Source: Alphaproteobacteria bacterium
GTDB taxonomy: Bacteria; Myxococcota_A; UBA796; CAJQPC01
NCBI GenBank assembly: GCA_020632795.1
Contig: JACKEV010000010.1
Span: 159,127 to 223,126, forward strand
Direction of reading: 5' to 3'
Length of the DNA stretch: 64,000 bases
Below the pieces are notes generated by a model, which searched no databases, had not been told where the DNA came from, and worked only from the letters and a program-made list of their open reading frames with translations. Below, in pieces: positions 50,438 through 55,183 of the stretch; positions within the stretch are counted from its first letter, which is position 1, and each line of letters starts with the position of its first letter. The position numbers and the translations under genes were made by a program.

Positions 50438-50677
50438 GCGCGCCCTTCAGCGCCGGGTTCGCCTTCGAGGTGCGAAACAGGATACGCTCTGGGGAGTGTG
50501 ACAGGACTATTGAACCCGGATTACGCTGCCAGACCCGCAGACGCGCGCTGGATGGTCAGGATCGCCGCCTTGGTGTTCCCCCTCCAACGCTCGGACAGGG
50601 GGTCCCGTTGACGCGTCACTCGCTGACGTGGTAGTCAGCCCTGGCAGGTATCCCTTTTCTGAGGCAGGCAACGGTCC

Positions 50678-52504
50678 ATGGGCAAAGCCATCGGCATCGA
50701 CCTGGGCACTACAAACTCCTGCGCGGCCATCTTCGCGGAAGGACGTCCCAGGCTGATCACGTACAAGGGGGGTGAAACCACCATCCCCTCGCAGTTCGCG
50801 ATCGACGAGCAAGGCAACCGACTGGTGGGGCATGAGGCCAAACAGCAGGCCCAGCTCAACCCCGTCAACACCGTCATGGCCTCCAAGCGCCTGATCGGTC
50901 GAAACTTCCATTCGAAGACGATCGAACAGGTCCGGCAGGTCTTCACCTACGAGCTGATGGAGGGCGACAACTCCGAGGTCCTGATCAAGGTCAAGGACCA
51001 GGTGTTCACCCTTGAGCAGATCTCGGCGGCCATCCTCCGCAAGATCAAGGATGTCGCCGAGGAGGCCCTCGGCGCCGAGGTGGACCAGGCCGTCATCACG
51101 GTGCCGGCCTACTTCAACGACCGGCAGCGCCAGGCGGTCCGCTCGGCGGGCGTGCTGGCCGGCCTCAAGGTCCTGCGGGTGCTCAACGAGCCCACCGCCG
51201 CCGCGCTGGCCTACGGCCTGGGGCGCAACCTTGAGTCCCGCGTCGCGGTCTACGACCTCGGCGGCGGCACCTTCGACATCTCGGTCATCGACATCAAGGA
51301 CCGCATCTTCGAGGTCGTCGCCACCGGCGGGGACACCTTCCTCGGCGGCGTGGACTTCGACGATCGGGTCATGCAGTACGTGCTCGAGGACTTCTACGAG
51401 CAGCACAGCATCGACCTCTCCTTCGACCGGGTCGCCATCCAGCGCATCCGCGACGCCGCTGAGACCGCGAAGATCAGCCTCTCCACGGTCACCCAGACCC
51501 CGATCGAGGTCCCCTACATCTTCAACGGGGACTCCGGGCCGCTGGACATCCGGATGACCCTGACCCGTGACCAGCTCAACGAGCTGTGCATGGATCTGGT
51601 CGACCGCACCATCGCGACCTGCCAGCGCATCATCAAGGAGGCCGGCTGCACCAAGGCCGACATCGACGAGATGCTCCTGGTCGGCGGCCAGAGCCGCATG
51701 CCGCTGGTGCAGTCCAAGGTCACCGAGTTCATGGGCAAGCCGCCCTCCAAGGGCGTCAACCCCGACGAGGCCGTCGCCATCGGCGCGGCCATGATGGCGC
51801 ACTCCCTGTCGAGCACGTCCGCCGAGGACGGCGTCACCCTGCTCGACGTCCTGCCCATGCCCATCGGCATCAACAAGCTCGACGGCACGATGCACGTGCT
51901 CTTCGAGAAGAACCAGCCCCTGCCGGACTACAAGACCCGCACGCTGACCTCGGGCAAGGACAACCAGCGCTCCATCATGCTCCGCCTCTACCAGGGCGAG
52001 TCCAAGCTGGTCGAGGAGAACGAGCTGCTCGGCACCTTCGTCTTCTCCGGCATCCGCCCCGCCCCCAAGGGCAAGGTCCAGATCGAGGTCACCTTCCACA
52101 TCGACTCCGAGGGCATCCTCAACCTGACCGCGCGCGACAAGGCCACCGGTCAGACCGTCGAGTCCACCCTCAAGCTGGGCAAGCCGGGCGGCGCCAAGAG
52201 CAAGCGCAAGAAGCTCAAGAACAAGGCCGCGCGCAAGGAGACGGCGCCGCCGACGCCGATCAACATGCCCACCTCGTCCCTGGCCCAGCAGCTCGGCAGC
52301 CCGCCCCCGATGGCGCCGCCTCCGCTCAGCCCGGTGCCCTCCTCGCTGGCCCCCAGCGCCACCGAGGACGCCCCCACCGTGAAGGCGCCCCCCACGCCCA
52401 CGCCGGTCAGCGAGCCCCCGCCGCTCCAGCCTCCTGCGGTCGCCCCCAAGCCCGAGAAGAAGGGCTTCTGGGCCTGGCTCAAGGGTCTGTTTGGCATCGG
52501 CTGA
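50678..52504 (+). CDS. second Hsp70-family protein with a Pro-rich, basic C-terminal extension instead of the acidic DnaK tail
   Basis: [13 protein letters not shown] and DLGGGTFD blocks. C-terminus is KSKRKKLKNKAARKE followed by a Pro-rich region ending KKGFWAWLKGLFGIG. Confidence 0.85.
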   Translation: MGKAIGIDLGTTNSCAAIFAEGRPRLITYKGGETTIPSQFAIDEQGNRLVGHEAKQQAQLNPVNTVMASKRLIGRNFHSKTIEQVRQVFTYELMEGDNSEVLIKVKDQVFTLEQISAAILRKIKDVAEEALGAEVDQAVITVPAYFNDRQRQAVRSAGVLAGLKVLRVLNEPTAAALAYGLGRNLESRVAVYDLGGGTFDISVIDIKDRIFEVVATGGDTFLGGVDFDDRVMQYVLEDFYEQHSIDLSFDRVAIQRIRDAAETAKISLSTVTQTPIEVPYIFNGDSGPLDIRMTLTRDQLNELCMDLVDRTIATCQRIIKEAGCTKADIDEMLLVGGQSRMPLVQSKVTEFMGKPPSKGVNPDEAVAIGAAMMAHSLSSTSAEDGVTLLDVLPMPIGINKLDGTMHVLFEKNQPLPDYKTRTLTSGKDNQRSIMLRLYQGESKLVEENELLGTFVFSGIRPAPKGKVQIEVTFHIDSEGILNLTARDKATGQTVESTLKLGKPGGAKSKRKKLKNKAARKETAPPTPINMPTSSLAQQLGSPPPMAPPPLSPVPSSLAPSATEDAPTVKAPPTPTPVSEPPPLQPPAVAPKPEKKGFWAWLKGLFGIG

Positions 52505-52541
52505 GACCGGCGGCCTTTCCCTGTCGGATCCGGCCCGCGTC

Positions 52542-53339: not shown

Positions 53340-53374
53340 ACCCCGGCGTCAGCCTCCCCACCCCGGAGCCCCCT

Positions 53375-55183
53375 GTGTCCGAGAACGAGCGCGGTCAGCC
53401 GATCACGGAAGGGACGACGGCCGCGCGGCGCTTCGAGATGCGCCTCTGCCTGGGCCGCGGGGGCTACGGCGAGGTCTACCTGGCGACCATGCAGAGCAGC
53501 GGCGGCCTGACCCAGGACGTCGCGGTCAAGACGCTGCTGCCCGAGGCCGCGCCGGACGGCGACGCGGTCCGACGCCTGCGCGACGAGGCCCGGCTGCTGG
53601 CCAGCCTGAACCACCGCGCCATCCTCAAGGTCCACGACCTCATCTCCCTCCAGGGCCGGGTCGCCCTGATCACCGAGTACGTGCCCGGCCTCGACCTGGA
53701 GGCCTGCGTGAGCGGCCAGCCGCCGCTGCCGCCCCGCGCGGTGGTGCAGGTCATCTCCGAGGTCGCCAGCGCCCTGCACGCCGCCTTTGAGACCCGGGGG
53801 GCCGACGGCGCCCCGATGCGCCTCATCCATCGGGACGTCAAGCCCTCCAACATCCGGCTCAGCCCGGGGGGCGCGGTCAAGCTGCTGGACTTCGGCATCG
53901 CGATCGCCCCCGACCGCGAGCGCGAGGCGAAGACCGGCACCGGCCTGGTCATCGGCAGCTACGGCTACATCGCCCCCGAGCGCGTCACCGACGACGCCCC
54001 TCGTCCTGCCAGCGACATCTACGCCCTGGGCTGCGTGCTGTTCGAGGCCCTCACCGACGCGAAGCTCTACCAGGATGTCTCCCGCCGCCAGCTCACGGTC
54101 ATGTCCATCCACGATGAGGTCCACGACGACTTCATCGACGCGCAGCTCCAGCGCCTGCCCCCTGGCCTCCCCCCGGCCCTGCTGACCCTGCTGCGCGAGC
54201 TGCTCGCCCACGACCCGGAGCGGCGGCCGAGCGCGGGCGCGGTGGAGATCCGGGCCGAGGACATCGCCCAGGAGATGGACGGCGCGCACCTGCGCCGCTG
54301 GTGCCGGGAGCGGGACTGGCCGCCGCCGGAGGGCCAGGCGGGCGAGCTGACCGGCCTGGTCATCACCGAGACCGGCGCGAGCCGCCCGTTCAGCCCCCAG
54401 CCCGCGGGCCTGCCGCCGGCCAACGAGACCTTCGCGTTCCCGCCGCTGGCGGCGGCCTCCAACGAGGACGCGCTGGCCGAGCCCGCGCCCCCCGCTCCGC
54501 CCGAGCCCGACGCCCCGCCACCCGAGGCGCCCGAGGCGCCCACCGAGGCCTCGCCCCGCTGGCCGATCGCCGTCGGCGCCTTGATCGTCCTGCTGCTCGC
54601 GGGCGCTGGAGGGGTCGTGTGGCTGCAGAAGGAGGCCCCGCCGCCCGAGGTGCCTGCGGTGGTCGAGGCGCCCGCGGTGGTCGAGGCGCCGCCCGACGAG
54701 CCGGATGCGCCGGAGGCGGCCCCGCCGAATGCGGCCCAGCCGAATGCGGCCCAGCCGAACGCGGCCCAGCCGGATGCGCCGTCTGACGCGCCGACGCCCG
54801 TGGCGCCGCCCTCTTCCGAGACGCCGAAGCCATCGGCCACAGCGCAGACCCCGCCGCCATCCGCCCCGCCCGCGGCCAGCCCGCCCCCCGAGGCACCCGA
54901 GGCGCCCCCCGCCGCCCTGGTCGGCGCCGCGGAGATCAGCGCCGGCTTCGGCCCGGCCCGCTTCGCCCGCGTCTCCAACAACAGCGACGTCGGCTGGACC
55001 GGCTGCACCATCACCCTGGACGGCCGGTGGAGCTTCTACCAGGGCCACATCCCGGCCCGCTCCTCCGACAAGACCCCGCTGACCCGCTACAAGGACGAGT
55101 CCGGGGACTTCATGACGGCCAACCGGGACATCACGCTCGTGGCGGTGCGCTGCGACCAGGGCACCGCCACCTTCAGGCCCTGA
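53375..55183 (+). CDS. serine/threonine protein kinase with a Pro-rich linker, one TM helix and a repeat-containing extracytoplasmic C-terminus
   Basis: GRGGYGEVY, VAVK, HRDVKPSN, DFG and APE kinase subdomain motifs. TM helix WPIAVGALIVLLLAGAGGVVWL. GTG start. Confidence 0.8.
   Translation: MSENERGQPITEGTTAARRFEMRLCLGRGGYGEVYLATMQSSGGLTQDVAVKTLLPEAAPDGDAVRRLRDEARLLASLNHRAILKVHDLISLQGRVALITEYVPGLDLEACVSGQPPLPPRAVVQVISEVASALHAAFETRGADGAPMRLIHRDVKPSNIRLSPGGAVKLLDFGIAIAPDREREAKTGTGLVIGSYGYIAPERVTDDAPRPASDIYALGCVLFEALTDAKLYQDVSRRQLTVMSIHDEVHDDFIDAQLQRLPPGLPPALLTLLRELLAHDPERRPSAGAVEIRAEDIAQEMDGAHLRRWCRERDWPPPEGQAGELTGLVITETGASRPFSPQPAGLPPANETFAFPPLAAASNEDALAEPAPPAPPEPDAPPPEAPEAPTEASPRWPIAVGALIVLLLAGAGGVVWLQKEAPPPEVPAVVEAPAVVEAPPDEPDAPEAAPPNAAQPNAAQPNAAQPDAPSDAPTPVAPPSSETPKPSATAQTPPPSAPPAASPPPEAPEAPPAALVGAAEISAGFGPARFARVSNNSDVGWTGCTITLDGRWSFYQGHIPARSSDKTPLTRYKDESGDFMTANRDITLVAVRCDQGTATFRP
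54725..54780 (+). repeat. tandem 15-bp repeat (CCGAATGCGGCCCAG, three copies plus one partial) encoding (AAQPN)n in the kinase ectodomain
   Basis: Direct tandem copies read from the sequence. Confidence 0.5.

Follow-up and report, generated by a model that had tools for sequence, protein, structure and literature searches.

A lidless Hsp70 with a MinD-like C-terminus, encoded beside trmJ in a family of Myxococcota-type genomes

Two Hsp70 genes lie in the 64,000-nucleotide stretch of DNA analyzed here (the window; positions 159,127 to 223,126 of contig JACKEV010000010.1, assembly GCA_020632795.1). One is the dnaK gene of a canonical grpE-dnaK-dnaJ operon. The other lies further downstream in a region of ~72-76% G+C content, as one of four consecutive genes on the plus strand, encoding a zinc-type alcohol dehydrogenase, the second Hsp70, a SpoU-family methyltransferase, and a Ser/Thr kinase. 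An earlier note on this DNA described the second Hsp70 as non-canonical and proposed that Hsp70, methyltransferase, and kinase constitute a signalling module. The locus thus raises the question of which genes belong together, and what kind of chaperone the second Hsp70 may be. We believe that the locus probably represents a housekeeping operon of two genes, encoding TrmJ and a membrane-tethered, lidless, J-protein-dependent DnaK paralog, and that the kinase is not part of it.

The Hsp70 gene and trmJ form a conserved pair

The conserved unit consists of the following features.

50678-52504, plus strand: lidless DnaK-type Hsp70 of 608 residues, with an ATPase domain, a linker, and a beta substrate-binding domain reaching to residue ~501, followed by a tail
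52542-53339, plus strand: trmJ, encoding a 265-residue enzyme of the SPOUT tRNA Cm32/Um32 2'-O-methyltransferase type, probable start ATG at 52542
50608-50637, plus strand: conserved sigma-70-type promoter, with the -35 element TTGACG at 50608-50613, an extended -10-like TGGTA at 50629-50633, and TAGTCA reaching to 50637

The second Hsp70 gene is an open reading frame (ORF) of 608 residues with a Pfam HSP70 match of 600 bits, in agreement with the earlier note. The protein appears to belong to a discrete and apparently undescribed family from uncultured myxobacteria. More than 120 full-length homologs (65-77% identity) came up in a protein search, and almost every one of them is from a Myxococcota-type metagenome-assembled genome. 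When 1.84 billion representatives clustered at 50% identity were searched, the family was reduced to three full-length representatives (60-63% identity), followed by a gap in score and then by proteins of 51% identity or less. Expanded Hsp70 sets in myxobacteria are already known (PMC8265645, PMC11019930). The signature of the present family is a lidless body, a polybasic run, a P-Φ-x-M-P-x-S-x-L-A motif, a membrane-type tail, and trmJ downstream. The combination of a missing lid, a MinD-like tail, a family-specific motif, and an obligatory trmJ linkage is not described in the searchable literature.

The pairing with trmJ was assessed in three ways. Contig look-ups for six distinct family Hsp70s found a SpoU methylase gene directly following in all six, with gene boundaries 0 to 91 nucleotides (nt) apart. 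A scan of one genome per species gave 58 family loci. By tblastn, a TrmJ homolog was placed directly downstream and on the Hsp70 strand in 56, and in the remaining two the contig runs out. All 53 loci with at least 1.3 kb of downstream sequence have trmJ in this position (49 were called by script, and the remaining four have overlapping alignment ends). Starting from the TrmJ side, homologs only 41-44% identical are still preceded by an Hsp70 of 609-627 residues. At one such locus with retrievable DNA (L078), the Hsp70 bears the same tail, the two genes overlap by 8 nt, and aroA-dnaG-rpoD lie downstream. Overall, the spacing of the called genes runs from this 8-nt overlap up to a gap of 91 nt. 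The dehydrogenase gene upstream, by comparison, shares the strand of the pair in just 35 of 51 loci. The Hsp70-trmJ pair persists where the flanking genes differ.

The kinase gene behaves differently. It adjoins the pair in none of the 53 species-representative loci and in none of the eight look-up loci (from Hsp70 and TrmJ queries) with a gene table or DNA. At L079, which holds the closest TrmJ relative in the protein search (73% identity), trmJ is followed by a convergent gene and not by a kinase gene. Of the linkage claimed in the earlier note, the Hsp70-methyltransferase part is tight and universal, and the kinase part does not hold; lack of conservation of the three-gene order, which the note itself had named as evidence against a signalling module, is what was found. 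The kinase is thus a lineage-specific neighbor outside the conserved unit.

The methyltransferase gene predicted in the earlier note is real and can be specified further. It encodes what appears to be an ordinary TrmJ-type enzyme, predicted to carry out 2'-O-methylation at tRNA position 32. The protein matches Pfam SpoU_methylase (PF00588) with 95.2 bits against a cut-off of 29.7. Among the NCBIfam models, TIGR00050 for the TrmJ/YjtD subfamily fits best, at 158.5 bits and thus below the cut-off of 167.15, and the PRK15114 equivalog scores 119.4, below its cut-off of 280. The small shortfall for TIGR00050 coincides with an extra Pro/Arg-rich insert between the two domains of the window TrmJ. 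Solved TrmJ structures match at E = 1.5e-33, with PDB 4cnd aligned over query residues 13-270, C-terminal domain included. E. coli TrmJ shares both the SPOUT domain and the TrmJ-type C-terminal helical domain with the window protein and is 36% identical to it end to end, the alignment reaching residue 235 of 246 (ELEILMGML versus ELNILRGIL). An alternative TTG start at 52491 would overlap the Hsp70 stop codon; the 265-residue product is 100% identical to an NCBI protein of the same length (P0121), which supports the ATG at 52542.

A promoter of the sigma-70 type is conserved ahead of the Hsp70 gene. The pattern TTGAC-N16-TGnTA was found in 53 of 61 distinct family upstream regions, 31-85 nt ahead of the start codon, with a frequency of 0.03% in shuffled sequences and no matches on the reverse strand. 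A generic consensus scan found no TTGACA/TATAAT promoter, and the conserved promoter is visible only because the 61 upstream regions were compared. The gaps between Hsp70 and trmJ and between trmJ and the kinase gene are 37 and 35 nt, respectively (starts ATG at 52542 and GTG at 53375). In a generic scan, no terminator-like site was detected on the plus strand between the three genes; the only two such sites are both on the minus strand, inside the Hsp70 gene. An Rfam scan of 50300-55400 gave nothing credible, the sole match being a miRNA model at E = 0.6.

Two further upstream elements had been proposed in the earlier note, and both sequences are indeed present in the 240-bp upstream region.

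50614-50628, no strand: CGTCA-N5-TGACG inverted repeat, inside the promoter spacer
50642-50657, plus strand: TGGCAG-N5-CCTTT sigma-54-like element, downstream of the -10 element and probably in the 5' untranslated region

Neither is retained as a regulatory site. The inverted repeat occurs in one of the 61 upstream regions, that of the window alone, and inverted repeats of 5 bp number three in the 240-bp region against 1.96 ± 1.76 in shuffles, which is chance level. The sigma-54-like element has TT in place of the -12 GC of the consensus TGGCAC-N5-TTGCW, and no TGGCA-N7-YGC sigma-54 core was found in the 240-bp region. Its TGGCAG (50642-50647) is common only to the closest subclade (L012, L018, L023, and L029). 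Regulation by sigma-54 or through the inverted repeat was therefore rejected.

It is worth noting that some records call for care. One apparent Hsp70-SpoU fusion of 849 residues (P0067) is a frameshift artefact of a fragmented assembly. Three-frame translation of its locus (L003, 8001-10550) shows the Hsp70 tail ending in GGFIGWLKGLFGR and then a stop, in another frame; the neighboring dnaJ, CNNM, and dehydrogenase genes at L003 are also split, which is typical of indel errors. The assembly titles of L008, L017, L025, L028, L032, L037, L038, L041, L042, L054, L056, L058, and L061-L064 name Bifidobacterium breve, Klebsiella pneumoniae, Enterobacterales, or Rickettsiales. The gene content of these assemblies matches Myxococcota-type loci, and the record names look unreliable. 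The window itself comes from a record titled Alphaproteobacteria bacterium (locus tag H6739_21080). Finally, the protein search returned no identical or near-identical counterpart of the window Hsp70 or kinase, the best matches being 77% and 56% identical; the deposited annotation may lack the two genes or list them as pseudogenes.

The lidless Hsp70 body and its tail

The second Hsp70 resembles DnaK up to the end of the beta substrate-binding domain and departs from it thereafter. Residues 4-518 match positions 1-515 of the 599 in the Pfam HSP70 profile, and the NCBIfam DnaK models match only to profile position ~494, with scores below their equivalog cut-offs (NF001413, 619.6 against 648; TIGR02350, 603.7 against 822.55). 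Identity to the DnaK of the window is 46% over residues 1-492, and nothing is alignable beyond. An AlphaFold2 model built from 61 family sequences contains folded ATPase and beta-sandwich domains, the latter with beta strands at 396-499, and past residue ~500 no structure except a helix at 597-604. The helical lid is thus lost. Neither the lid nor the acidic C-terminus of canonical DnaK is present, and the gene has no grpE or dnaJ of its own, as stated in the earlier note. The canonical DnaK gene resides in a grpE-dnaK-dnaJ operon, whereas the second Hsp70 gene lies outside one, with its sigma-70-type promoter and no recognizable heat-shock arrangement.

The functional residues of the body are kept. 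Alignments with E. coli DnaK and 60 family members show D8, K70, R151, R167, N170, E171, T173, D194, and T199 (E. coli numbering) to be invariant, so that the protein is like canonical DnaK in its catalytic and DnaJ-contact residues. The J-protein contact residues R167, N170, and T173 are invariant across the family and the reference proteins. The interdomain linker is the hydrophobic VTLLD. Cleft positions 401, 426, 436, and 438 are I, L, I, and L, against I401, F426, V436, and I438 in E. coli DnaK, and their hydrophobic character is kept.

We also considered an HscA identity, an idea suggested by the position of trmJ beside isc-hscBA in E. coli, and rejected it. The HscA models score 477 and 471 bits (best ~478), below their own cut-offs and below the DnaK scores. 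The window Hsp70 is closer to DnaK than to HscA by both identity (46% to the window DnaK and 43% to E. coli DnaK, versus 40% to E. coli HscA) and NCBIfam score (620 versus 478 bits). No isc or hscB gene was found in any family locus with a contig gene table.

Downstream of the beta domain, which ends in TLKLGK, the tail elements follow in a fixed order across the family.

52196-52237, plus strand: polybasic run, residues 507-520 (KSKRKKLKNKAARK), a K/R-rich stretch found family-wide
52247-52297, plus strand: family-specific short linear motif, residues 524-540 (PPTPINMPTSSLAQQLG), consensus P-Φ-x-M-P-x-S-x-L-A-x-x-I-G-G
52298-52456, plus strand: variable Pro/Ala-rich spacer, residues 541-593, varying in length and sequence and disordered in the AlphaFold2 model
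52457-52501, plus strand: putative membrane-targeting, MinD-like amphipathic helix, residues 594-608 (KKGFWAWLKGLFGIG), with the modelled helix at 597-604

The basic stretch KSKRKKLKNKAARKE, the Pro-rich region, and the ending KKGFWAWLKGLFGIG named in the earlier note are all present in the translation. Across the family, the 35 residues past the beta domain contain a median of seven K/R versus three D/E. Of 119 family members, 111 carry the short motif, and it is absent from all 147 other Hsp70 representatives. Within it, M530 never varies, and P525 and P531 hardly do. The tail with its four elements recurs in more than 110 homologs (65-77% identity) and at about 58 species-representative loci. 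The stretch between residue 506 and 20 residues before the end varies from 59 to 147 residues among family members. Every complete family member ends in a basic/aromatic C-terminus, for example GLWGKVSGWFKGLFGG or KKGFWAWLKGLFGLS, and commonly in WFKGLFGG.

This ending is similar to the membrane-targeting sequences of MinD and FtsA. The features common to them and to KKGFWAWLKGLFGIG or WFKGLFGG are the position at the extreme C-terminus, the flanking basic residues, and an aromatic/Leu pattern with a terminal Gly. For the Hsp70 tail, the hydrophobic moment is 0.49 (~0.5), similar to the maxima within the linker, and for the MinD tail it is 0.38. FtsA carries its membrane-targeting sequence on an actin-fold ATPase, and the second Hsp70 would be alike in this respect. 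Unlike MinD, the Hsp70 has the helix on a chaperone, after a long disordered spacer and a polybasic run. Nucleotide-dependent dimerization controls the membrane affinity of MinD, and there is no evidence of such control for the second Hsp70. The E. coli MinD sequence used experimentally as a membrane tether is KGFLKRLFGG (PMC5471200). The suggestion in the earlier note that the tail brings the Hsp70 to the membrane thus gains support from a conserved, MinD-like terminal basic/aromatic helix, from which we infer membrane binding.

Similar endings were also observed outside the family. About 40 of the 150 best non-family Hsp70 representatives, with tails read by eye, have a MinD-like C-terminus, for example KRGFFARLFGKGK or RGFMGWLKGLFGRA; among them are P0247, P0253, P0259-P0261, P0265, P0266, P0280, P0292, and P0300. 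All eight that were scanned have no lid, with Pfam matches ending at profile positions 494-519 of 599. Some of them have an N-terminal PilZ domain, including P0247 (WP_095959062.1) from the cultured Corallococcus macrosporus. The MinD-like ending looks like a portable, recurring module on lidless non-canonical Hsp70s.

Specialized DnaK paralogs are a known theme in the same phylum, as exemplified by the PilZ-DnaK proteins CsdK1 and CsdK2 (PMC10313047) and by DnaK2/SglK (PMC11019930, PMC8265645) of Myxococcus xanthus. DnaK2 preferentially binds membrane proteins (PMC11019930, PMC8265645). The PilZ-Hsp70s of cultured Myxococcaceae, such as P0247, are also lidless, end in RGFMGWLKGLFGRA, and in the case of P0247 fall into the architectural class of CsdK1 and CsdK2 (PMC10313047). 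The present family differs from them in having no PilZ domain, an identity of only 44-49%, a short motif of its own, and the trmJ linkage. SglK has a lid and its own GrpE, and the present family has neither. The studies of CsdK1/CsdK2 and DnaK2/SglK (PMC10313047, PMC11019930, PMC8265645) make no mention of a membrane-targeting tail, and our literature searches found no publication describing an Hsp70 with such a tail.

A proposed membrane-tethered chaperone and the alternatives

Based on these observations, we propose the following mechanism. The Hsp70-trmJ pair would be driven from the conserved sigma-70-type promoter and co-transcribed. The Hsp70 would act as an ATP-driven chaperone, with its ATPase site, linker, cleft, and J-protein contacts kept; because all of these are kept, its partners are most likely the general DnaJ and GrpE, whose genes lie 8.7 kb upstream. 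The polybasic run and the terminal MinD-like helix may anchor the protein to the inner membrane from the cytoplasmic side. With the disordered Pro/Ala-rich spacer (~50-60 residues here, longer in many relatives), the body of the chaperone would have the range to reach clients close by, which may be, for example, membrane or secretory proteins, and loss of the lid would speed client binding and release. The kinase gene is an insertion after trmJ that is confined to the lineage of the window.

Several points weigh against this explanation. All relatives come from metagenome-assembled genomes, some of them poorly labelled, and the AlphaFold2 model has only moderate confidence (mean predicted local distance difference test score, pLDDT, of 71.7). 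Part of the upstream gene order is also conserved in this lineage, and some of the conservation of the pair may reflect synteny by descent. The short motif specific to the family is left without a role. Composition-matched shuffles reach a hydrophobic moment as high as that of the tail, and the case for membrane binding is built on composition, position, conservation, and resemblance to MinD rather than on amphipathicity statistics. The tail also resembles a good Hsp70 client peptide and could bind its own cleft.

The last point leads to an alternative, which we consider unlikely. The terminal helix or the P-Φ-x-M-P-x-S-x-L-A motif may be a tethered pseudo-substrate that occupies the cleft of the same or a neighboring molecule, serving as an autoinhibitory plug or in oligomerization and not as an anchor. 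A hydrophobic or aromatic core flanked by K/R is the classic DnaK-binding pattern, and the tail has just such a core and such flanks. The cleft is intact and the lid is gone, and the strict family specificity of the short motif is otherwise unexplained. However, the AlphaFold2 model docks neither segment: the short motif shows no sign of docking onto the folded domains, at low confidence (pLDDT below 50) and with no contacts in the summary output, and the same output contains no contacts of the terminal helix. The likeness to MinD, together with the recurrence of this ending on lidless Hsp70s whose bodies differ, fits a portable anchor better. A mixed form is also possible: binding to the membrane would withdraw the plug, and the chaperone would be active only there. 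We give little credence to a wider version of this idea, in which the family is a membrane-switched Hsp70 class, its tail or motif plugging the cleft in the cytosol until membrane binding frees it, and in which the trmJ pairing is a real physical or regulatory link.

A physical partnership between Hsp70 and TrmJ appears doubtful to us. The chaperone would fold or hold the knotted SPOUT enzyme, or it would recruit TrmJ, perhaps with tRNA bound through the polybasic run, to the membrane, with the short motif as the dock. The pairing is universal and tight even where the flanking genes have changed, the short motif and the trmJ linkage are both family-specific, and trmJ of E. coli also has an Hsp70 gene nearby, namely hscA in the isc operon immediately downstream. 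On the other hand, no real fusion exists once the frameshifted 849-residue case is set aside, the TrmJ protein is ordinary (see the end-to-end comparison with E. coli TrmJ above), and conserved operons often join unrelated housekeeping genes. Our literature searches found no publication mentioning both TrmJ and Hsp70.

It is worth noting how the E. coli arrangement compares. In E. coli K-12 (L080, 2654000-2664500), trmJ is directly upstream of iscR-iscSUA-hscBA-fdx on the same strand. Proximity of TrmJ and Hsp70 genes is therefore not unique to the lineage of the window, but the type of Hsp70 differs, and we regard the proximity as only a curiosity.

A signalling module built from Hsp70, TrmJ, and the receptor kinase, in which the last would phosphorylate or regulate the first, is very improbable: the genes do share a strand here with short gaps and no terminator-like site between them, a kinase gene lies near the Hsp70 gene at L078, and an Hsp70-kinase fusion exists elsewhere, but the kinase does not adjoin the pair at any other locus described above, has no full-length homolog, has its best homolog in an unrelated context, and is of a kind for which chance adjacency is expected in kinase-rich myxobacterial genomes. 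We keep its probability above zero because of that fusion.

If the membrane-tethered reading is correct, it would have several implications. Hsp70s are normally brought to membranes by partner J-proteins, as in the cases of Sec63 with BiP and of Tim44/Pam18 with mitochondrial Hsp70. A lidless Hsp70 with its own MinD-like anchor would be a simple and self-contained way to localize chaperone activity. MinD-like endings occur on roughly a quarter of the nearest non-family Hsp70s, including PilZ-DnaK proteins of cultured Myxococcaceae, which makes the idea testable in Myxococcus xanthus; C-terminal tags, as placed on CsdK1 and CsdK2, might obscure a tail of this kind. The strict trmJ pairing could be a sign that chaperones and tRNA modification are linked. 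For annotation, the analysis separates a clean two-gene unit with a family signature from an incidental kinase neighbor.

The kinase and the genes around the pair

The membrane Ser/Thr kinase with an AAQPN repeat, as the earlier note described it, is a real gene product with intact motifs and one hydrophobic segment.

53375-55183, plus strand: Hanks-type Ser/Thr kinase of 602 residues, probable start GTG at 53375
54560-54628, plus strand: transmembrane segment of the kinase, residues 396-418, mean Kyte-Doolittle value 2.4
54716-54778: AAQPN repeat in the Pro/Ala-rich outer spacer of the kinase, period 15 nt, 4.2 copies
54926-55180: orphan C-terminal domain of the kinase, ~85 residues with two cysteines

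The Pkinase domain scores 134 bits, and the G-loop, AVK, HRDVKPSN, DFG, and APE motifs are intact at residues 27, 50, 152, 172, and 200, respectively. In the protein search, homologs cover only ~50-60% of the query, namely the kinase half, at 56% identity or less, and none is full-length; the best of them sits among unrelated genes. The metagenome contig scan found no relatives of the outer domain. Further short tandem repeats were observed in the outer spacer (54646-54690 and 54481-54541), namely an 18-nt unit in 2.5 copies encoding EAPAVV and units of 9 and 18 nt. The repeats point to a rapidly evolving low-complexity spacer. The kinase may be co-transcribed with the pair in this genome.

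Kinase genes were also seen near a few other family loci, in divergent orientation ~650 nt upstream of the Hsp70 gene at L078 and 5-6 kb away at L045 and L063. Myxobacterial genomes carry very many Hanks-type kinases, and these occasional neighbors are about what chance would give. The Hsp70-kinase fusion referred to above is P0336, a protein of 1185 residues with HSP70 (7-534), TPR, and Pkinase (931-1172) domains, which belongs to a different Hsp70 lineage at 43% identity.

The remaining features of the surrounding region are listed below. They include the canonical operon at 39012-43142, which is as the earlier note described it.

39012-39998: grpE, part of the canonical operon
40079-41977: dnaK, with a full-length HSP70 match (profile positions 1-598 of 599)
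42045-43142: dnaJ, part of the canonical operon
49268-50437, plus strand: zinc-type alcohol dehydrogenase gene
55087-56502, minus strand: DUF2330 gene, converging on the kinase gene

A triple-receiver GGDEF protein is encoded beyond the DUF2330 gene. At their 3' ends, the kinase ORF on the plus strand and the DUF2330 ORF on the minus strand overlap by 97 nt (55087-55183). In the DUF2330 protein, a hydrophobic segment and then RRRR occur ~35 residues ahead of the stop, and the last stretch of its ORF may be read-through in a stop-poor, high-GC sequence.

The wider gene order was compared between the window (39012-50437) and loci L004-L007 and L010-L060. Many relatives share the order (grpE-dnaK-dnaJ), LppC-like binding protein, AIR-synthase-like protein, two CNNM/CorC transporters, zinc dehydrogenase, Hsp70, and trmJ. 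This wider order is more variable than the pair itself; in L007 and L053 the dehydrogenase gene points the other way, and about 15 loci do not have it. In several relatives, a small gene (142-178 residues, no Pfam match) lies between those for the dehydrogenase and the Hsp70, in one orientation or the other (L001, 7450-7878; L004, 5350-5859, minus strand; L005, 5289-5825, minus strand; L007, 5432-5908). In the window, this position holds only the 240-bp gap between the dehydrogenase and Hsp70 genes.

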